Shown: positions 821 to 16,753 of the stretch, one piece after another
How positions within the stretch are numbered: position 1 is the stretch's first letter
Layout of the letters: each line of letters begins with the position of its first letter
From: a virus
Virus genome (UHGV): UHGV-0163678
DNA length: 17,995 nucleotides
Direction: 5' to 3' (one strand)
Program-made: the position numbers and the translations under genes
The notes under the pieces: generated by a model
What the model was told of the DNA's origin: nothing
The model's database searches: none
Seen by the model: the letters and a program-made list of their open reading frames with translations, nothing else

Positions 821-1192
821 TTACTTAAGAACGAGTCCGTTTAAGGCATCAAGGATTTTGGAAACATAACTTCCAAAAATGTAGGCGCAAAATGCGAACA
901 CGAAACTGACAACGACCGCAGATGCCTTGATGGTGATTTTTGCTGAGCTAATGCTTGTCTCAATACCTGACAGACGAGAATCTACAGATTTTATATCTGA
1001 CTTTACTTCAGCGAGATCGCGCTTGATGTATTCAACATCAGACTCTAGCTTTGCAACTCTAGCCTCAAGCATGTTACCTCCGCCGTTTCCTCCACCATGC
1101 CGTGAGTATGCATCATCAGTGGAATAGTGTCCAATTGGGCGAGATATGTTTTGATTTGGACGAAGCTGAGCAACCTTGTTATCTAAACTCAT
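821..1192 (-). CDS. Hypothetical tail-anchored membrane protein: Gly-rich N-terminal region, coiled coil, single C-terminal transmembrane helix; second gene of the rex-position cassette
   Basis: 123-aa ORF. AGGA about 10 nt upstream of the ATG; overlaps the upstream ORF by 14 nt. Sequence shows GGGNGGGN, a heptad-like segment LEARVAKLESDVEYIKRDLAEVKSDIKSVDSRL, and a hydrophobic stretch AVVVSFVFAFCAYIFGSYV. AT-rich by eye compared with cI. Confidence 0.55.
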   Translation of the reverse strand: MSLDNKVAQLRPNQNISRPIGHYSTDDAYSRHGGGNGGGNMLEARVAKLESDVEYIKRDLAEVKSDIKSVDSRLSGIETSISSAKITIKASAVVVSFVFAFCAYIFGSYVSKILDALNGLVLK

Positions 1193-1616
1193 CGCGAACT
1201 GATCCTGTTATCTTCACGTCAAAAAACGAACTTTTTACATCAATTACTTCGCCTTTATCAGGATTAACCAGTGATGCTCTAACTTCGAATATCCCAGGCT
1301 TGATAATTTTCACCCTTGGGAAGTTAATTCTCATAGAAGTTGATACGATGGTTTCTCCATCGTTGGCTTCTGCTACCGTAAAAAACTTATGGTTGGAGTA
1401 CAGTTTTGTGTCAATTGGTATCGGTATTTCTTGAGCATTGAAAACCTCAATGCCTATGGAATATTTTTTTGTAGCCTTAAGGCCGATAAAAAAAGCGCCA
1501 AATGATAGATCCACTTCATGGGAGTCTTTATCCATTTCATAGATAAGAACTGGAGTTACTGGGTTGCCTTCATCCATCGCAATCGGAATGATATAAGAAA
1601 TACGTTCTTTAATCAT
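1179..1616 (-). CDS. Hypothetical protein, first gene of the rex-position cassette downstream of cI
   Basis: 145-aa ORF starting 7 nt after the cI stop codon on the same strand, suggesting translational coupling. No motif I recognise. AT-rich by eye. Confidence 0.6.
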   Translation of the reverse strand: MIKERISYIIPIAMDEGNPVTPVLIYEMDKDSHEVDLSFGAFFIGLKATKKYSIGIEVFNAQEIPIPIDTKLYSNHKFFTVAEANDGETIVSTSMRINFPRVKIIKPGIFEVRASLVNPDKGEVIDVKSSFFDVKITGSVRDEFR

Positions 1617-8498: not shown

Positions 8499-8674
8499 TG
8501 CTTAGTCCATCCCAATCCCTTCAATACCAGAAAGAAAGCGTCGAGCGAGCTTTAACGTGCGCTAACTGCGGTCAGAAGCTGCATGTGCTGGAAGTTCACG
8601 TGTGCTCAGATTGCTGCGCAGAACTGATGAGCGATCCGAATAGCTCAATGTACGAGGAAGAAGACGATGGCTAA
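8498..8674 (+). CDS. ninF: NinF
   Basis: 58 aa, [36 protein letters not shown]..., matching lambda NinF as recalled. Found by manual translation, below the ORF-track cutoff. Confidence 0.7.
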   Translation: MLSPSQSLQYQKESVERALTCANCGQKLHVLEVHVCSDCCAELMSDPNSSMYEEEDDG

Positions 8675-9233
8675 ACCAGCGCGAAGACGATGTAACCGTA
8701 AAAGAGAAGATTTAACTGTTAAAAGGATATTTGAGTTACTAAGTTTCGATAAATCCACCGGGGTATTTAGATGGAAAGTTCCCACTCAGGGAAGGATATC
8801 ATTAAATAGTATTGCTGGAACTTTTGATTCCAACGGTTATTCAATGATCATGATAGATGGGCGTAGATATAAAACTCACGTCTTAGTTTTTTACATAACT
8901 CATAATCGTTGGCCTGCTGGTCAAATTGACCACGTTAATGGAATTAGGACCGACAATAGGCCAGAAAATTTAAGAGAATGCCTGCCAATAGAAAATTCAA
9001 GAAATATAAGGATCCGAAAGAATAGCAAATCAGGTTGCAGAGGAGTTACTTGGCACAAACGACAGAAAAAATGGAATGTTAGGCTAGGTTTCCATGGCAA
9101 GAGTAAACACTTCGGATGCTTTGATGATCTGGAGTTAGCGGTACTAGTTGCTGAAGAAGCCCGAGATAAGTATTACGGTGATTTTTCCGGCAACGAAAGG
9201 AGCACTTATGCGAATCTATCGAAGGAAATGTAA
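8667..9233 (+). CDS. HNH homing endonuclease with AP2-like DNA-binding domain
   Basis: HNH signature ([17 protein letters not shown]) and an AP2-like segment ([33 protein letters not shown]). Markedly AT-rich by eye. Its N-terminus MAKPARRRC mimics the lambda NinG N-terminus as recalled. Confidence 0.8.
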
Positions 9234-9810
9234 ATGTTGCAATGAATGGTTTATACCAAAATATCAAAATCAATATTGGTGTAATGAGATTTGTGGAACC
9301 AAGATAGCACTCGAACGACGAAGCAAAGAACGCGAAAAAGCGGAAAAGGAAGTAGAGAAGAAACGACGACGAGAGGAGCAGAAACAGAAAGATAAACTTA
9401 AGATTCGAAAACTCGCCTTAAAGCCCCGCAGTTACTGGATTAAACAAGCCCAACAAGCCGTAAACGCCTTCATCAGAGAAAGAGACCGCGACTTACCATG
9501 TATCTCGTGCGGAACGCTCACGTCTGCTCAGTGGGATGCCGGGCATTACCGGACAACTGCTGCGGCACCTCAACTCCGATTTGATGAACGCAATATTCAC
9601 AAGCAATGCGTGGTGTGCAACCAGCATAAAAGCGGAAATCTCGTTCCGTATCGCGTCGAACTGATTAACCGGATCGGGCAGGAAGCAGTAGACGAAATCG
9701 AATCAAACCATAACCGCCATCGCTGGACTGTCGAAGAGTGCAAGGCGATCAAGGCAGAGTACCAACAGAAACTCAAAGACCTGCGAAATAGCAGAAGTGA
9801 GGCCGCATGA
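9208..9810 (+). CDS. ninG: NinG (Rap-like) with a re-built 5' end
   Basis: From about residue 30 onward, near-identical to lambda NinG as recalled ([18 protein letters not shown] ... [11 protein letters not shown]). New ATG at 9208 with an AAGGAG Shine-Dalgarno at 9198..9203; the first ~30 codons are recoded and AT-rich. Confidence 0.75.
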
Positions 9811-10013
9811 CGTTCTCAGTAAAAACCATTCCAGACATGCTCGTTGAAGCATACGGAAACCAGACAGAAGTAGCACGCAGACTGAAATGTAGTCGTGGTA
9901 CGGTCAGAAAATACGTTGATGATAAAGACGGGAAAATGCACGCCATCGTCAACGACGTTCTCATGGTTCATCGCGGATGGAGTGAAAGAGATGCGCTATT
10001 ACGAAAGAATTGA
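9807..10013 (+). CDS. ninH: NinH
   Basis: 68 aa, [49 protein letters not shown]..., matching lambda NinH as recalled. Confidence 0.8.
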
Positions 10014-10662
10014 TGGCAGCAAATACCGAAATATTTGGGTAGTTGGCGATCTGCACGGATGCTACACGAACCTGATGAAAAAACTGGAGACGATAGGATT
10101 CGACACCAAAAAAGACCTGCTTATCTCGGTTGGCGATTTGGTCGATCGCGGTACAGAGAACGTCGAATGCCTGGAATTAATCACATTCCCCTGGTTCAGA
10201 GCTGTACGTGGAAACCATGAGCAAATGATGATTGATGGCTTATCAGAGCGCGGAAACGTCAATCACTGGATGCTTAATGGCGGTGGCTGGTTCTTTAATC
10301 TCGATTACGACAAAGAAATTCTGGCTAAAGCTCTTGCCCATAAAGCAGATGAACTTCCGTTAATCATCGAACTGGTGAGCAAAGATAAAAAATATGTCAT
10401 CTGCCACGCCGATTATCCTTGTGACGAATACGAGTTTGGAAAGCCAGTTGATCATCAGCAGGTAATCTGGAACCGAGAACGAATCAGCAACTCACAAGAC
10501 GGGATCGTGAAAGAAATTAAAGGCGCGGACACGTTCATCTTTGGTCATACGCCAGCAGTGAAACCGCTCAAATTTGCCAACCAGATGTATATCGATACCG
10601 GCGCAGTGTTCTGCGGAAAGCTCACATTGATTCAGGTACAGGGAGAAGGCGCGTGGGCATAA
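9991..10662 (+). CDS. ninI: NinI Ser/Thr protein phosphatase (lambda phosphatase family)
   Basis: Metallophosphatase motifs GDLHG, GDLVDRG, GNHE. Start taken as ATG 9991 (MRYYERIDG...), overlapping the ninH end as in lambda. Confidence 0.85.
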
Positions 10663-11141
10663 GAGAACTAAACCTCACCAAAGAACAGCATGAGTGGCTG
10701 AATGGCTGGCTTGAACTGTGGGGCGCATGGGTTTATTCAGGTCGTCTGGAAAAGCGCATGAGCAGCGTAATAGCGAAGTTCATGGAGAGCGTAGAGCCGG
10801 GAAGAGTTATGACAAGGCCAATGTGTAATGATGATGATGGAATGTTGATTTCTCAGGTCGTCGATTCCGTCATGTACATTGACAAGAAAGCCTTTGGCAT
10901 CCTCCTCAGCTACTACGCCCATGGATCTTCCAAGCACGCCATTGCATCTTACTATCATCGCGTCGCAAGACCTCGCAAGATGTTATGCCGGGGCGGCGGG
11001 CGCATTCAAAAACCATCGCTCGCAACCTGTCGTCGGGAAGTTGACGAAATCCTCAATGCCTCGTTGTTTATGATTTACCCGGTTCTGGATAGTGCGTTTA
11101 AAAACCGGAAACGTGTAGAGAAAATTAAACATGTAGCATAG
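10653..11141 (+). CDS. Q-family late-gene antiterminator (non-lambda allele)
   Basis: 162-aa ORF between ninI and the lysis cassette, the position of Q. No similarity to lambda Q as recalled, so the assignment is positional. A T-tract terminator follows. Confidence 0.5.
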
Positions 11142-11188
11142 AACGTGTTGACATCATTGAGCAAATGAGCAACACTATTCGCATAAGC

Positions 11189-11231
11189 TGCCGTTAGTGA
11201 CTCTTAAGTTGCAACGGTGGCTTTTTTATTT
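11189..11231 (+). terminator. Candidate tR'-like terminator downstream of Q
   Basis: Imperfect hairpin (CCGTT...AACGG) followed by TTTTTTATTTG. The sequence just after it (GCACAACAGGTAAGAGCATTGA) matches the region just after lambda tR' as I recall it. Confidence 0.4.
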
Positions 11232-11386
11232 GCACAACAGGTAAGAGCATTGAACCCGCAGACCTCGCGGAATTGGTGAAAGGTGCCGCGCAGTGCTCTT
11301 ATCGTTGTGGTGAAGCTCAATGGCGAGCTAGCAGATAGGCGATAGTGAAAATACTAGTCATGTAGCTGACCGCCGCGCGTACTGCA

Positions 11387-11432
11387 ATCGGCAGCGCACC
11401 GATGGAAGCCGGTTCGATTCCGGTCGCCACAA
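11387..11432 (+). other. tRNA-like 3' fragment (anticodon-arm-like hairpin, T-arm GCCGG-TTCGATT-CCGGT, acceptor 3' strand)
   Basis: Canonical T-loop motif GGTTCGATTCC with a 5-bp stem. No 5' acceptor strand or D-arm can be paired within a normal tRNA length. Confidence 0.3.
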
Positions 11433-11553
11433 TCCAAACTGAGCCGTAGCCACTGGCTATCCTGAACTCATCAGTGATAGTTATGCTGCGGCCTTCTTTT
11501 TTCCCCTTCCCAATATAAGAACTACGCAATCCGTTACTGGCGGAGGCGTTGCT

Positions 11554-11769
11554 ATGAAATCAATGGACAAAATCTCAACTGGCATTGCCTACGGAACATC
11601 CGCAGGCAGTGCGGGATACTGGTTTTTACAGTGGCTTGATCAGGTCAGTCCGTCACAGTGGGCTGCGATTGGTGTACTGGTGAGTCTGGTTCTGGGCTTC
11701 CTGACTTATCTGACAAATCTGTACTTCAAAATCAGAGAAGACAGAAGAAAGGCTGCGAGAGGTGAATAA
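11554..11769 (+). CDS. Pinholin, phage 21 S-type (class II holin)
   Basis: 71 aa, [42 protein letters not shown]..., near-identical to the phage 21 S holin as recalled. Dual-start motif (Met1 and Met4). Confidence 0.85.
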
Positions 11770-12266
11770 TGCCTCCATCATTACGAAAAGCCGTTGCTGC
11801 TGCTATTGGTGGCGGAGCAATTGCTATAGCATCAGTGTTAATCACTGGTCCAGGTGGTAACGATGGTCTGGAAGGTGTCAGCTACATACCATACAAAGAT
11901 ATTGTTGGTGTATGGACTGTATGTCACGGGCATACAGGAAAAGACATCATGCTCGGTAAAACGTATACCAAAGCAGAATGCAAAGCCCTCCTGAATAAAG
12001 ACCTTGCCACGGTCGCCAGACAAATTAACCCGTACATCAAAGTCGATATACCGGAAACAACGCGCGGCGCTCTTTACTCGTTCGTCTACAACGTGGGGGC
12101 TGGCAATTTCAGAACATCGACGCTTCTTCGCAAAATAAACCAGGGCGATATCAAAGGCGCATGTGACCAGCTACGTCGCTGGACATACGCTGGCGGTAAG
12201 CAATGGAAAGGGCTGATGACCCGTCGTGATATTGAGCGTGAAGTCTGTTTGTGGGGGCAGCAATGA
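11769..12266 (+). CDS. SAR endolysin (lysozyme with N-terminal signal-anchor-release domain), phage 21 R-type
   Basis: 165 aa. Gly/Ala-rich N-terminal hydrophobic segment ([20 protein letters not shown]) followed by a T4-lysozyme-like catalytic region. TAATG overlap with the holin stop. Confidence 0.85.
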
Positions 12267-12700
12267 GCAGAGTAACCGCGATTATCTCCGCTCTGGTTAT
12301 CTGCATCATCGTCTGCCTGTCATGGGCTGTTAATCATTACCGTGATAACGCCATGACCTACAAAGAGCAGCGCGATAAAGCCACATCCATCATCGCTGAT
12401 ATGCAGAAGCGTCAACGTGATGTAGCAGAACTCGACGCCAGATACACAAAGGAGCTTGCTGATGCTAACGCGACTATCGAAAGTCTCCGTGCTGATGTTT
12501 CTGCTGGGCGTAAGCGCCTGCAAGTCGCCGCCACCTGTGCAAAGTCAACGACCGGAGCCAGCAGCATGGGCGATGGAGAAAGCCCAAGACTTACAGCAGA
12601 TGCTGAACTCAATTATTACCGTCTCAGAAGTGGAATCGACAGGATAACCGCGCAGGTTAACTACCTGCAGGAGTACATCAGGACGCAATGCCTGAAATAA
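12263..12700 (+). CDS. Rz-like inner-membrane spanin
   Basis: N-terminal transmembrane helix and coiled-coil periplasmic domain. ATGA overlap with the endolysin stop; start taken as ATG 12263 rather than the ORF-track start at 12251. Confidence 0.75.
12456..12647 (+). CDS. Rz1-like outer-membrane lipoprotein spanin, embedded in Rz in the +1 frame
   Basis: 63-aa ORF wholly inside Rz. Lipobox-like LLGVSAC followed by a proline-rich mature region ([13 protein letters not shown]). Confidence 0.6.
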
Positions 12701-12712
12701 CAACTAAGTGAG

Positions 12713-13141
12713 ATGAATATGGCGACTGAACCAAAAGCTGGTCGCCCCTCTGATTATATGCCGGAGGTGGCTGACGATATCTGCTCGTTGCTTTCTTCTG
12801 GCGAAAGTTTGCTGAAAGTATGTAAGCGTCCTGGTATGCCGGATAAGTCCACTGTTTTCCGCTGGCTGGCAAAGCATGAGGATTTTCGCGACAAGTACGC
12901 GAAGGCAACTGAGGCACGAGCTGATTCTATTTTCGAAGAGATATTCGAAATTGCTGACAATGCGATTCCAGATGCTGCTGAGGTGGCAAAGGCAAGACTT
13001 CGCGTTGATACCCGCAAATGGGCGCTGGCCCGAATGAATCCCCGTAAGTATGGCGACAAGGTAACTAACGAACTTGTCGGCAAAGACGGCGGCGCAATCC
13101 AGATTGAAACATCACCGATGAGCACTCTATTCGGAAAATGA
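12713..13141 (+). CDS. Terminase small subunit
   Basis: 142-aa ORF immediately upstream of, and overlapping, the large terminase gene, directly after the lysis cassette. Confidence 0.65.
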   Translation: MNMATEPKAGRPSDYMPEVADDICSLLSSGESLLKVCKRPGMPDKSTVFRWLAKHEDFRDKYAKATEARADSIFEEIFEIADNAIPDAAEVAKARLRVDTRKWALARMNPRKYGDKVTNELVGKDGGAIQIETSPMSTLFGK

Positions 13142-14553
13142 CCTCGATTAATCCTATCTTTGAACCGTTCATTGAGGCGCATCGCTACAAAGTCGCCAAA
13201 GGCGGTCGAGGTAGCGGTAAATCATGGGCAATTGCGAGGCTGCTTGTTGAGGCGGCGCGTCGGCAGCCTGTGCGTATTCTCTGCGCTCGTGAACTGCAAA
13301 ACAGTATCAGCGATTCGGTAATCCGGTTGCTTGAAGACACCATAGAGCGGGAAGGGTATTCGGCTGAGTTTGAAATTCAGCGTTCAATGATCCGTCATCT
13401 CGGAACGAATGCTGAATTCATGTTCTACGGCATAAAAAACAACCCTACGAAGATTAAATCGCTCGAAGGCATTGATATCTGCTGGGTGGAAGAAGCGGAA
13501 GCGGTAACAAAGGAATCGTGGGATATCCTGATACCAACCATCCGCAAGCCGTTTTCCGAAATATGGGTGAGCTTTAACCCGAAGAACATACTCGACGATA
13601 CCTATCAGCGATTCGTTGTAAATCCTCCCGATGATATTTGTCTGCTGACGGTGAACTACACCGACAATCCGCATTTTCCTGAAGTTCTCCGTCTGGAGAT
13701 GGAAGAGTGTAAACGCAGAAACCCGACACTGTATCGTCACATCTGGCTTGGTGAGCCAGTAAGCGCAAGTGATATGGCAATCATCAAACGTGAATGGCTT
13801 GAAGCCGCAACCGATGCGCACAAGAAACTCGGATGGAAAGCGAAAGGCGCTGTTGTCTCTGCGCATGACCCATCAGATACAGGGCCAGATGCTAAAGGTT
13901 ATGCATCGCGTCACGGTTCGGTAGTTAAGCGCATTGCCGAAGGTCTGCTGATGGATATCAACGAGGGTGCTGACTGGGCAACTTCGCTGGCGATTGAAGA
14001 CGGCGCTGACCACTACCTGTGGGATGGTGATGGTGTTGGTGCTGGGCTACGCAGACAGACAACGGAAGCGTTCTCCGGCAAGAAAATCACCGCCACGATG
14101 TTCAAGGGCAGCGAATCGCCATTCGATGAAGATGCACCATATCAGGCCGGAGCATGGGCCGATGAAGTCGTACAGGGCGACAACGTTCGCACTATTGGTG
14201 ATGTGTTCCGCAATAAGCGAGCACAATTCTATTACGCGCTGGCTGACAGGCTGTATCTGACATATCGGGCGGTTGTTCACGGTGAGTATGCAGACCCCGA
14301 CGACATGCTGAGTTTCGACAAAGAAGCGATAGGCGAGAAGATGCTGGAGAAGCTGTTTGCAGAACTGACGCAGATTCAGCGCAAATTCAATAACAACGGG
14401 AAGCTTGAGCTAATGACTAAGGTCGAAATGAAGCAGAAGCTCGGTATTCCATCTCCTAACCTGGCTGATGCGCTGATGATGTGTATGCATTGCCCGGAGT
14501 CGGCTGCGCAACCCGACTATTCCAGTTACTCAATTCCTTGTGGTGTAGGTTGA
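13138..14553 (+). CDS. Terminase large subunit (ATPase and nuclease)
   Basis: 471 aa. Walker A motif near the N-terminus (AKGGRGSGKS), acidic Walker B-like WVEEAEA, and a C-terminal domain with conserved acidic residues. Confidence 0.9.
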   Translation: MTSINPIFEPFIEAHRYKVAKGGRGSGKSWAIARLLVEAARRQPVRILCARELQNSISDSVIRLLEDTIEREGYSAEFEIQRSMIRHLGTNAEFMFYGIKNNPTKIKSLEGIDICWVEEAEAVTKESWDILIPTIRKPFSEIWVSFNPKNILDDTYQRFVVNPPDDICLLTVNYTDNPHFPEVLRLEMEECKRRNPTLYRHIWLGEPVSASDMAIIKREWLEAATDAHKKLGWKAKGAVVSAHDPSDTGPDAKGYASRHGSVVKRIAEGLLMDINEGADWATSLAIEDGADHYLWDGDGVGAGLRRQTTEAFSGKKITATMFKGSESPFDEDAPYQAGAWADEVVQGDNVRTIGDVFRNKRAQFYYALADRLYLTYRAVVHGEYADPDDMLSFDKEAIGEKMLEKLFAELTQIQRKFNNNGKLELMTKVEMKQKLGIPSPNLADALMMCMHCPESAAQPDYSSYSIPCGVG

Positions 14554-14554
14554 T

Positions 14555-16753
14555 ATGGCAGAAAAAAAGATGACTGACTGGCATCGCAAGGTGCTGTGCA
14601 ACTTTGATAATGCCTGGTCAGCAACGCAGGATATGCGTGAGCAGATTATTGAGGCTCAACGTTTCGTCCGGGTGTCCGGCGCACAGTGGGAAGGCAGCAC
14701 AAACGCTGGTTACTCATTTGATGAAGGCAGGTTTGAGCATTACCCGCGCTTTGAACTGAATAAGATTGCCCGTGAATGTGATCGCATCATTGGCGAGTAT
14801 CGACAGAATCGCATCAGCGTTAAATTCAGGCCGAAGGATGACAAGGCATCGGAAGCGTTAGCCGAAAAGATGAACGGCAAATTCCGCGCTGATTATCAGG
14901 AAACATCCGGTGGCGAAGCGTGTGATAACGCATTTGATGATGCTGTAACGGGCGGATTCGGTTGTTTCCGCATGTGTGCTGATTACGAAGATGAAATGGA
15001 TCCGAGTAACGAGCAACGCCGTATAAGCCTTCTCCCTGTTTACGACCCAGCGACATGCGTCTTCTTTGATCAGGACAGCAAGCAATATGACCGCTCTGAT
15101 GCTATGTGGGCTATGGAAATGTTCTCCATGACGCCTAAAGCGTTCGAGGCTGAATACCCTGATTCCATCGCGGCAAGCCTTTCTCGTGATGACACTGGTA
15201 CTCAGTATGACTGGTCAACGCCTGACGCCATCTATGTTGGACGCTACTACGAAGTCCGCATAGAGAAGGTGAAGCTCACAGCATGGCGTAACCCTGTCAG
15301 CGGAGAAACGGCAATCTATGATGAAGAGCAAATCAAAGATATTGTCGACGAGCTGACCGATGGTGCATTCGAACTGATTGGCGAGCGAACGGTGAAGAAA
15401 CGCCGAGTTTATTGCGGTCTTCTGTCTGGCGCTGAATGGCTGGAAGAACCGAAGCGTATTCCGGGCGAACATATTCCTCTCATCCCGGTATATGGGCGTC
15501 GTTCATTTGTTGATAATCAGGAGCGAATCGAAGGCCACGCAGCAAAAGCGATGGATGCACAGCGTCTTGAGAACCTGATGGTTTCCATGATTGCAGATAA
15601 CGCCACTCAGGCTGGCGGTGATGGCATTCCTATCGTGGATGTTGATTTCATTCCCGGCCCATTAATGAACCACTGGGCAGAGAGGAATAAGAAAAGACCT
15701 GCAGTTCTTCCTATGACCAGCAAGAAGGACAAAAACGGAACGGTCATTTCAGAGGCTCAGGTTGCTGGCTGGACACCTCCGACACAAATGCCTCCAGCTC
15801 TTGCAGGGCTATTGCAGTACACCGGAACGGCTATTCAGCAAATTACAGGTGCGTCGCAGCTTGAGAACATGCCGAGCAACGTCGCTACCGATACCGTTGA
15901 TAGCATCTTTAACCGGATGGACACGCAGTCCTATATCTACATGGACAACATGGCTAAATCCATGCGCCGTGCTGGCGTCGTGTGGCTTTCTATGGCTCGT
16001 GAAGTCTATGGCAGCGATACGCCAATGCGCATCGTTAATGAGGATGACAGCGATGACGTGGCGCTGATGACTGGTGAAGTGGTTGACCGTCAGACAGGGC
16101 AGGTTATCGCGCTTAACGACCTTTCGCAGGGTAACTATGAAGTGACTGTCGATGTCGGTCAGTCGTTCGCTACTCGCCGTGATGCAACGGTTAAGTCGTT
16201 ACTTTCCATGCTGGCACTTATCCCGCCAGGAACGCCGAAGCATGACCTTGTATCGTCGATGATTCTCGACAATATGGACGGCGAAGGGATGGACGACCTG
16301 AAAGAATACAACCGCAATCAGTTGCTTCTGTCTGGCGTTATCAAGCCGAGAACGCCTGAAGAACAGCAAATGGTTGAGCAGGCGAAACAACAACAGGCCA
16401 GTCAGCCAGATCCGGCTATGGTTGCAGCGCAAGGTCAGCTTCTTGCAGGTCAGGCTGAATTGCAGAAAGCGCAGAACGAACAGGCAGCCATTCAGGTTAA
16501 AGCATTCCAGGCACAGACTGATGCTCAGGTTGCAGCGGCAAACGTTGTGAAAATCCTCGCATCTGCCGATAGCCAGCAGAAATCTGATATCCGCGAGGCT
16601 CTGAAACTGCTCGGACAGTTCCAGCAACAGCAAGGAGACAATGCCCGTGCTGATGCAGAGCTTGTCCTGAAAAGTCAGGCACAGGGTCATGCGCAGCGCA
16701 TGGACATCAGCAGCATCCTGCAAAAATCAACTCAGCAACAACCACAGCAGTAA
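14555..16753 (+). CDS. Portal protein (P22/Sf6-like, with C-terminal Gln-rich helical extension)
   Basis: 732-aa ORF immediately after the large terminase. Size and the glutamine-rich alpha-helical C-terminal ~120 residues resemble P22-type portals. Confidence 0.8.
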   Translation: MAEKKMTDWHRKVLCNFDNAWSATQDMREQIIEAQRFVRVSGAQWEGSTNAGYSFDEGRFEHYPRFELNKIARECDRIIGEYRQNRISVKFRPKDDKASEALAEKMNGKFRADYQETSGGEACDNAFDDAVTGGFGCFRMCADYEDEMDPSNEQRRISLLPVYDPATCVFFDQDSKQYDRSDAMWAMEMFSMTPKAFEAEYPDSIAASLSRDDTGTQYDWSTPDAIYVGRYYEVRIEKVKLTAWRNPVSGETAIYDEEQIKDIVDELTDGAFELIGERTVKKRRVYCGLLSGAEWLEEPKRIPGEHIPLIPVYGRRSFVDNQERIEGHAAKAMDAQRLENLMVSMIADNATQAGGDGIPIVDVDFIPGPLMNHWAERNKKRPAVLPMTSKKDKNGTVISEAQVAGWTPPTQMPPALAGLLQYTGTAIQQITGASQLENMPSNVATDTVDSIFNRMDTQSYIYMDNMAKSMRRAGVVWLSMAREVYGSDTPMRIVNEDDSDDVALMTGEVVDRQTGQVIALNDLSQGNYEVTVDVGQSFATRRDATVKSLLSMLALIPPGTPKHDLVSSMILDNMDGEGMDDLKEYNRNQLLLSGVIKPRTPEEQQMVEQAKQQQASQPDPAMVAAQGQLLAGQAELQKAQNEQAAIQVKAFQAQTDAQVAAANVVKILASADSQQKSDIREALKLLGQFQQQQGDNARADAELVLKSQAQGHAQRMDISSILQKSTQQQPQQ

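Follow-up and report, generated by a model that had tools for sequence, protein, structure and literature searches.

The window, by which the whole stretch of 17,995 nucleotides of UHGV virus genome UHGV-0163678 is meant, raises the question of where its lysis genes come from and under whose late regulation they stand. The first-pass annotation had described a phage-21-type lysis cassette grafted onto a lambda-type immunity and late-regulatory backbone, with a recombination joint lying just before the holin. The analysis reported here points to another arrangement, in which positions 10640-12700 are very probably a late-regulation and lysis segment of a mosaic lambdoid E. coli prophage having lambda immunity and head genes of P22/Sf6 type. 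The complete annotated genome OL657228 served as the phage 21 reference.

Holin, endolysin and spanins

The following features make up the lysis genes.

11498-11553, + strand: phage-21-specific leader of S, with the Shine-Dalgarno sequence GGAGG at 11543-11547; 58/59 identical to phage 21
11554-11769, + strand: S21-type pinholin gene S, 71 aa; from the ORF list, Pfam and the phage 21 alignment
11769-12266, + strand: SAR endolysin gene R, an R21/RrrD-type GH24 lysozyme of 165 aa; from Pfam, PDB and the R21 alignment
12263-12700, + strand: i-spanin gene Rz of HK97/HK75 type, 145 aa from the ATG; Pfam Phage_lysis, E=1.4e-36
12462-12647, + strand: o-spanin gene Rz1, 61 aa; Pfam Rz1, E=2.2e-20

The S product was matched by Pfam PF04971 ('Bacteriophage P21 holin S', E=1.4e-34) and is identical to phage 21 S at 70/71 residues (98.6%), the sole change being G43V. 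Its N-terminus reads M1-K2-S3-M4, with antiholin S71 starting at ATG 11554 and pinholin S68 at ATG 11563, and the dual-start MKSM motif noted at first pass is thus confirmed. The Kyte-Doolittle mean exceeds 1.0 in S only at residues 31-60, the Gly/Ala/Ser-rich residues 8-26 staying below this value. Two transmembrane domains (TMDs) were accordingly distinguished, TMD1 being SAR-like and of weak hydrophobicity and TMD2 containing G40, S44 and G48, which correspond to the G40xxxS44xxxG48 face of S21 TMD2. The G43V change adjoins this face. At codons 40-50 every codon is unlike that of phage 21 while the protein is altered only at G43V, and this stretch is a small patch derived from a more diverged allele. 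The exact S protein with V43 was absent from phage records and present in NCBI on a few contigs; a literature search on a G43V substitution in the holin returned nothing usable.

The start of R overlaps the stop of S as TAATG. Pfam Phage_lysozyme was matched by the R product (E=2.4e-45), as was the R21 structure PDB 3hde over residues 1-165 (E=3.9e-110), and the best PDB match is DLP12 RrrD (4zpu), with 163/165 residues over the full length (E ~1e-110). Identity to R21 itself is 161/165 (97.6%) and residues 1-28 are unchanged, in keeping with the SAR N-terminus that had been claimed for this endolysin; the only hydrophobic stretch of the protein is this Gly/Ala-rich N-terminus, weakly hydrophobic at residues 4-31. 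The catalytic residues E35, D44 and T50, as read from the translation, are all conserved. Codon differences from phage 21 are synonymous in 17 cases and non-synonymous in one for S, and 14 and four respectively for R; such an excess of synonymous changes indicates strong purifying selection on both as working genes.

The start of Rz in turn overlaps the stop of R as ATGA, and a hydrophobic stretch at residues 1-27 of Rz represents an N-terminal transmembrane domain. Rz1 lies wholly within Rz in the +1 frame, as first described (12462-12263, an offset of 199 nt), preceded by AAGGAG as Shine-Dalgarno sequence 7 nt to its 5' side, and occupies 0.45-0.88 of the length of Rz, near the range reported for such pairs (PMC6139136). 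The first-pass annotation had made its reading depend on a lipobox in Rz1, and one is present: V-S-A-C20, with Lys at +2, after a basic n-region (R4, K7) and a hydrophobic h-region. Rz has two periplasmic cysteines, C92 and C143, and mature Rz1 has none besides the lipid-modified Cys; the Rz1 of lambda has a further one, C29. For spanins a single homotypic disulfide close to the junction is enough (PMC6139136), and C92 and C143 of Rz are in keeping with this rule despite the lack of a second cysteine in Rz1.

The alleles of the spanin genes, on the other hand, are not those of phage 21. Rz is identical to that of HK75 at 141/145 residues (97.2%), compared with 56-58% for phage 21 and lambda, and Rz1 at 59/61 (96.7%), compared with 35-37%. 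The nucleotide identity over Rz/Rz1 is 97.9% to HK75 and 95-96% to phiKp_30 and PS34. When Rz was divided into 30-nt bins, those from 12263 to 12352 showed an identity of 96-100% with phage 21, lambda, SfI, HK75 and phiKp_30 (PS34, 86-96%), while the bins beyond 12353 fell to 38-83% for phage 21 and lambda and stayed at 93-100% for HK75 and 86-100% for phiKp_30 and PS34. Kongari et al. (2018) place HK75, P22, PS34, Sf101, Sf6 and Emek among the members of an HK97 o-spanin family, and lambda, 21, SfI and HK629 among those of a Lambda family (PMC6139136). By these alignments Rz/Rz1 are HK97-family alleles, outside the family of lambda and phage 21, and the pair was probably recombined in through the first ~95 nt of Rz (12263 to ~12352), which all the compared types have in common. 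Consequently the lysis cassette is not wholly of phage 21: the claim that all of it follows phage 21 holds for the architecture and for the alleles of S and R, and fails for those of Rz (56% to phage 21) and Rz1 (35%).

It could be argued that such a cassette is a decaying cryptic-prophage remnant comparable to essD-rrrD-rzpD of DLP12, its lysis function lost, since DLP12 RrrD is the best PDB match of R and the setting of the window is a bacterial chromosome or a metagenome. This is very improbable, as none of the four frames is disrupted, their overlaps and Shine-Dalgarno sites have been preserved together with the lipobox and the catalytic residues, synonymous changes far exceed non-synonymous ones, and the Q, terminase, portal and scaffold genes flanking the cassette are intact as well.

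Late regulation, immunity and module joints

The features that bear on regulation and on the limits of the segment are these.

10653-11141, + strand: late antiterminator gene Q (Q21 type); 161/162 aa identical to phage 21 Q
11148-11232, + strand: phage-21-type late promoter region; by identity to OL657228 39506-39590
11437-11497, + strand: conserved leader block common to lambda, HK75, phage 21 and the window; from a four-way alignment
12691-12712, + strand: junction to the Sf6/P22-type packaging genes, terS starting at 12713; Pfam Sf6_terminase

The immunity region agrees with what had been proposed. The segment cI-OR-cro (1628-2651) is 97.7% identical to lambda at the nucleotide level by blastn, CI and Cro are identical to their lambda counterparts at 235/237 and 62/67 residues, and OR differs by one base, located in OR1. 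By these comparisons the immunity is lambda-type. The blastn matches to lambda are limited to OL/pL, cI-OR-cro, pieces of the nin region, ninG-ninI (9292-10655, 97.3%), two leader blocks and the 5' part of Rz.

The late-regulatory genes do not follow this pattern. Q is identical to phage 21 Q over 161 of its 162 residues (99.4%), while its identity to lambda Q is only 13.9%; it matched the Q21 structures PDB 6jnx and 6p18 (E ~1e-109), and its Pfam family is Phage_antitermQ, not the lambda-type Antiterm (207 aa). From the 3' end of Q through tR' (to 11232) the DNA equals phage 21 base for base, save for the length of the T-run of tR'. Transfer of the annotation of OL657228 places the -35 element TTGACA at 11148-11153, the Q-binding element ATTGAGCAAATGAGCA at 11156-11171, the transcription start at ~11183 and tR' at 11185-11232. 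The Q-binding element at pR' reads ATTGAGCA/AATGAGCA, and the Q-dependent switch of phage 21 was recognised in it. The terminator tR' was missed by a simple terminator scan, its call resting on identity to the annotated phage 21 terminator. With Q being Q21 and pR', the Q-binding element and tR' being those of phage 21, the late regulation is, judged from these alignments, that of phage 21 and not that of lambda, and the lambda-type late-regulatory backbone of the earlier description has to be abandoned.

The passage from lambda to phage 21 takes place at the ninI/Q boundary (10637-10655), within AGGGAGAAGGCGC(A/G)TG, which comprises the start codon of Q with its ribosome-binding site and is common to lambda, phage 21 and the window; the start codon itself is GTG here and ATG in phage 21. 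On the alignments, the phage 21 module begins at Q (~10640), ~900 nt before the holin-adjacent joint proposed earlier. The likeness to lambda that had been noticed around 11430-11490 is real, as 11428-11495 matches lambda 44936-45003 at 89.7% by blastn, in addition to 11222-11253 at 93.8%. Over its 61 nt, however, the leader block 11437-11497 differs from lambda at seven positions, from phage 21 at three and from HK75 at two. A module boundary does follow at 11497|11498, 56 nt upstream of S, where lambda and HK75 continue into the S105 leader, and phage 21 and the window into the S21 leader; from 11498 the leader of S equals phage 21 save for one T in a T-run and is unrelated to lambda and HK75. 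Since both the leader block and the boundary are present in phage 21 itself, they are no evidence of a lambda backbone. The joint just before the holin thus exists as a boundary, shared by phage 21, and is not the place at which the phage 21 module starts.

At the other end, Rz terminates in CCTGAAATAA and the start of terS lies 12 nt further. CCTGAAATAA is a 10-bp repeat, and in PS34 copies of it stand at the end of gene 15 and just before gene 3, flanking 1.6 kb that is missing from the window. No terminator-like site was detected on the + strand between Rz and terS by the simple scan, which also missed tR'.

A complete phage 21 S-R-Rz-Rz1 set on a lambda-type late backbone (lambda Q and leader), joined immediately before S, has in its favour the two leader matches to lambda, the genuine boundary at 11497|11498 and the existence of such an arrangement at another locus (L110), where an identical S protein stands behind a lambda-type Q (Pfam Antiterm, 207 aa) and an HNH gene, but it has hardly any probability left and is already refuted for this window by the alignments of Q and the promoter, the more so as the seemingly lambda-like block also occurs in phage 21 and Rz/Rz1 are of the HK97 family.

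The late-gene and lysis mechanisms of phage 21 and lambda are well established. On the gene identities, overlaps, motifs and mosaic joints described above, the late-regulation and lysis segment would be expected to work as follows, every functional step being carried over from these two systems. Q21 would bind its element at pR' and enable RNA polymerase to read through tR' into the late operon, and the late transcript would then comprise the tRNA-like RNA described below, S, R, Rz/Rz1, the terminase genes and the head genes in this order, with no intervening terminator. S68 and the antiholin S71, with its one extra Lys, would accumulate in the inner membrane until TMD1 of S exits the bilayer and TMD2 builds small pinholes, with collapse of the membrane potential. 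Depolarisation would free the exported, membrane-tethered R, which may then refold and degrade the wall, after which the Rz/Rz1 complex would fuse the inner and outer membranes. The lysis mechanism is partly restated in two published accounts (PMC7312051, PMC6139136), and the pinholes of S21-68 are described as small, depolarising the membrane and impassable for the endolysin (PMC7312051).

A tRNA-like RNA ahead of the lysis genes

Between tR' and the leader block the window carries a further, unannotated feature.

11305-11436 (~130 nt), + strand: tRNA-like structured RNA gene; from fold and covariation

It fills the slot directly after tR' that holds tRNA-Asn and tRNA-Thr in phage 21 and SfI. 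This slot is also occupied by tRNAs in Sf6 and L, and commonly holds tRNA genes in P22-like phages (PMC8022706). The predicted fold is a cloverleaf with a 9-bp acceptor stem and, in some variants, a CCA-like 3' tail. The cloverleaf has AGCUC/GAGCU as its D arm and a long, class-II-like variable arm of 5 bp; the T arm is GGTTCGATTCC with a perfect GGUUCGAUUCC. The anticodon arm is greatly extended, interrupted by the conserved internal loop AUAG / GCGCGUA and closed by an apical loop of 18 nt containing ACUAGU, as against the 7-nt anticodon loop of a canonical tRNA.

Pattern scans of IMG/VR yielded ~95 contigs with the element, and a covariance-model alignment was made of 37 distinct sequences. 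In this alignment, which is fitted to the model and hence biased towards the structure, 98.8% of the cells are paired and 20 of the 38 pairs are compensatory; none of 500 shuffles was as good, and slid controls reached 27-54% paired. An independent MAFFT/RNAalifold analysis, with compensatory changes at 12 of 35 pairs, agrees with it. G-U pairs are seen on the + strand only, suggesting an RNA read in the direction of the late operon.

The apical loop holds a 6-nt palindrome at a fixed position, being ACUAGU, UCUAGA, GCUAGC, UCGCGA or ACCGGU, with covariation between its positions 1/6 and 3/4, while the other loops are invariant. A palindromic loop in all members was considered and rejected, as in a variant from metagenomic data (L140) the arm is short, the apical part is missing altogether and the loop, of 7 nt, holds no palindrome. 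The covariation within the palindrome is, by way of hypothesis only, most simply read as loop-loop pairing of two copies.

No tRNA was called in the gap between Q and S by ARAGORN at default settings, and Rfam 15 gave no match there at the gathering threshold or at E<=10. With introns allowed and the threshold lowered, ARAGORN proposed, below its usual threshold, a tRNA-Ala(ggc) interrupted by an intron of 38 nt. An intron-bearing tRNA-Ala was rejected, since the supposed intron forms a conserved, covarying helix in all homologues and the introns known from bacterial tRNAs are of group I. Homology to species 1 or 2 RNA of T4 was rejected likewise, the match being at generic tRNA level only: T4 species 1 RNA (rnaC), a stable RNA of ~140 nt with a tRNA-like 3' part, scores 14.5 bits, no better than ordinary tRNAs. 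As a stable RNA of tRNA-like character it sets a functional precedent without being homologous.

The segment 11233-11436 (~205 nt) has an identity of 97-98% with HK75 and with a small number of further lambdoid phages, and its inner 142 nt recur at 79-96% in unrelated phages of Salmonella (Skatevirus, Akiravirus) and Pantoea. Lambda and HK629 have the same flanks and closing stem with a different interior, the closing stem of lambda showing the compensatory changes TTGTGCTG/CAGCACAA. The element was found in 164 of 5,426 complete E. coli genomes (~3%). Among species-representative genomes the single match is an E. coli-type copy on a contig of a Cellvibrionaceae MAG, which is probably mis-binned. 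RefSeq has no annotation over the element in the 15 listed matches that cover it fully. One weaker listed match overlaps a hypothetical protein. No description of a phage tRNA-like RNA with a palindromic loop was found in the searchable literature, which is weak evidence of novelty.

A tentative proposal, more doubtful than probable, is that these elements make up a family of tRNA-like phage RNAs, not described so far, that stand in place of genuine tRNAs where the late operon begins in unrelated phages, are cut from the transcript by tRNA-processing enzymes and form a kissing-loop homodimer through the palindrome. The RNA may act as a decoy against tRNA-targeting defences, or as an element of processing or stability of the lysis mRNA. 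It is the only item of this neighbourhood that could repay more work.

Comparison with known systems

The gene arrangement is already public and the lysis cassette is an ordinary one. Exact sequences of all four lysis proteins were found in NCBI, and DNA 100% identical to 8554-14769 of the window exists in independent public assemblies. The match is perfect over 3-6 kb in two Logan contigs and in a metagenome scaffold from ENA; an NCBI draft genome reaches 99.5%. The 100%-identical public contigs span HNH-ninG-ninH-ninI-Q-S-R-Rz-terS-terL. On the other hand, coverage of 11142-12712 does not exceed 75% in any phage record, nor does that of 10640-12712 exceed 90% in any complete E. coli genome, the near-complete matches listed all having tRNA-Thr in the gap. 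The cassette, a further reassortment of well-characterised lambdoid modules, matters little in itself. It offers a clean example of where joints are placed, namely at the start codon of Q with its ribosome-binding site, where the shared leader block ends, in the conserved 5' portion of Rz and at the 10-bp repeat that follows Rz, and it corrects the annotation, putting lysis under Q21 control and the spanins in the HK97 family.

In phage 21 the order is Q21, pR'/Q-binding element/tR', tRNA-Asn, tRNA-Thr, S21, R21, Rz and Rz1, and the window agrees with it in the dual start of S, in the SAR N-terminus of R and in the way the genes overlap. Unlike phage 21, the window has a 205-nt HK75-type segment with the tRNA-like RNA in place of the tRNA pair, an Rz from another family past about codon 32 together with the whole of Rz1, and ninI upstream of Q where phage 21 has a ninH fragment; it also lacks bor, with terS directly after Rz. 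Shigella phage SfI (JX509734) and 38 complete E. coli genomes show the order Q21-tRNAs-S21-R21 at 94-97% nucleotide identity over ~90% of the segment. They keep tRNA-Thr/tRNA-Asn and are without the tRNA-like element, and SfI differs in the distal part of Rz.

HK75 (HM173637) resembles the window in the tRNA-like element and leader block (97-98% at the nucleotide level) and in the near-identical Rz/Rz1 described above, and its Q, a Q21 relative, is 88% identical to the present one at the same level. It differs in having a lambda-type S105 holin and an R transglycosylase between the equivalent of 11497 and the start of Rz. Lambda, finally, shares with the window the position of S-R-Rz-Rz1 in the late operon, the spanin genes embedded in the +1 frame and the first ~90 nt of Rz (96-100%), while its large-hole holin S105 and cytoplasmic transglycosylase R are unrelated to the S and R found here (14-19% at the amino acid level).

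A tRNA-like RNA between Q and S

The interval between Q and the holin gene S holds an unannotated tRNA-like RNA with a cloverleaf fold and covariation, in the slot where phage 21 instead carries tRNA-Asn and tRNA-Thr. The features treated here are as follows:

11305-11436 (flanks 11291-11440), plus strand: tRNA-like RNA
lambda 44850-44940 (about 9850-9940 in the lambda locus L003): lambda counterpart of the region
HK629 locus L009, 1513-1647: HK629 counterpart of the region
8667-9233, plus strand: HNH endonuclease gene, 188 aa, phrog_99

In this RNA the anticodon arm of the cloverleaf is extended, and its apical loop contains a covarying 6-nt palindrome. The RNA of 11305-11436 has no entry in Rfam 15 and was not detected by ARAGORN run on the window with default settings. 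Out of 5,426 E. coli genomes that are complete, 164 carry it; phages of Salmonella and Pantoea and metagenomic phages have it too. Lambda and HK629 share with it the flanks and the long-range closing stem, which in the lambda version displays compensatory changes, whereas the interior enclosed by this stem is unrelated to that of the tRNA-like RNA. The Q-S leader seems to host a family of structured, interchangeable inserts.

Outside lambdoid contexts (loci L019, L032, L073, L083 and L096), a small and very basic ORF of roughly 80-120 aa (for example MNRNQRRMAAYNAKKA...) lies no more than about 20-40 nt 3' of the element and may be its functional partner. HNH genes adjoin the element in HK629, in E. 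coli MS 196-1 and in locus L110; the HNH gene of the window is an insertion within the nin region, upstream of ninG.

Joints, operator and holin codons

The joint between the lambda-type ninI and Q falls in the common string AGGGAGAAGGCGC(A/G)TG, the start codon of Q at 10653 being GTG where that of phage 21 is ATG. The OR region is the same as in lambda apart from one G>A change in OR1 at 2402 (TACCTCTAGCGGTGATA against TACCTCTGGCGGTGATA). At the end of the i-spanin gene Rz, a 10-bp repeat is shared with PS34:

12691-12712: Rz end and junction to terS, with the repeat CCTGAAATAA closing Rz
PS34 locus L006, 3975-3984 and 5605-5614: the same repeat

The second PS34 copy stands just before gene 3, 1.6 kb from the first, and the arrangement looks like a precise deletion between the repeats in the window or an insertion in PS34.

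Within S, all 11 consecutive codons from 40 to 50 (11671-11703) are unlike those of phage 21, and the only non-synonymous change among them is GGA>GTG (G43V), which adjoins the G40/S44/G48 face of the second transmembrane domain. The exact S protein with G43V was found in no phage record.

An ORF pair downstream of cI

Two overlapping ORFs lie directly downstream of the lambda-type cI:

821-1192, minus strand: ORF of 123 aa with a hydrophobic C-terminal tail
1179-1616, minus strand: ORF of 145 aa

Neither had a match in the Pfam search; the sole PADLOC match of the pair was marginal (CorA-like, E=0.0039), and in PHROGs only groups of unknown function were matched (6136 and 5893). The two ORFs form a candidate pair of exclusion genes that the prophage would express; in lambda the same position is taken by rexA-rexB.
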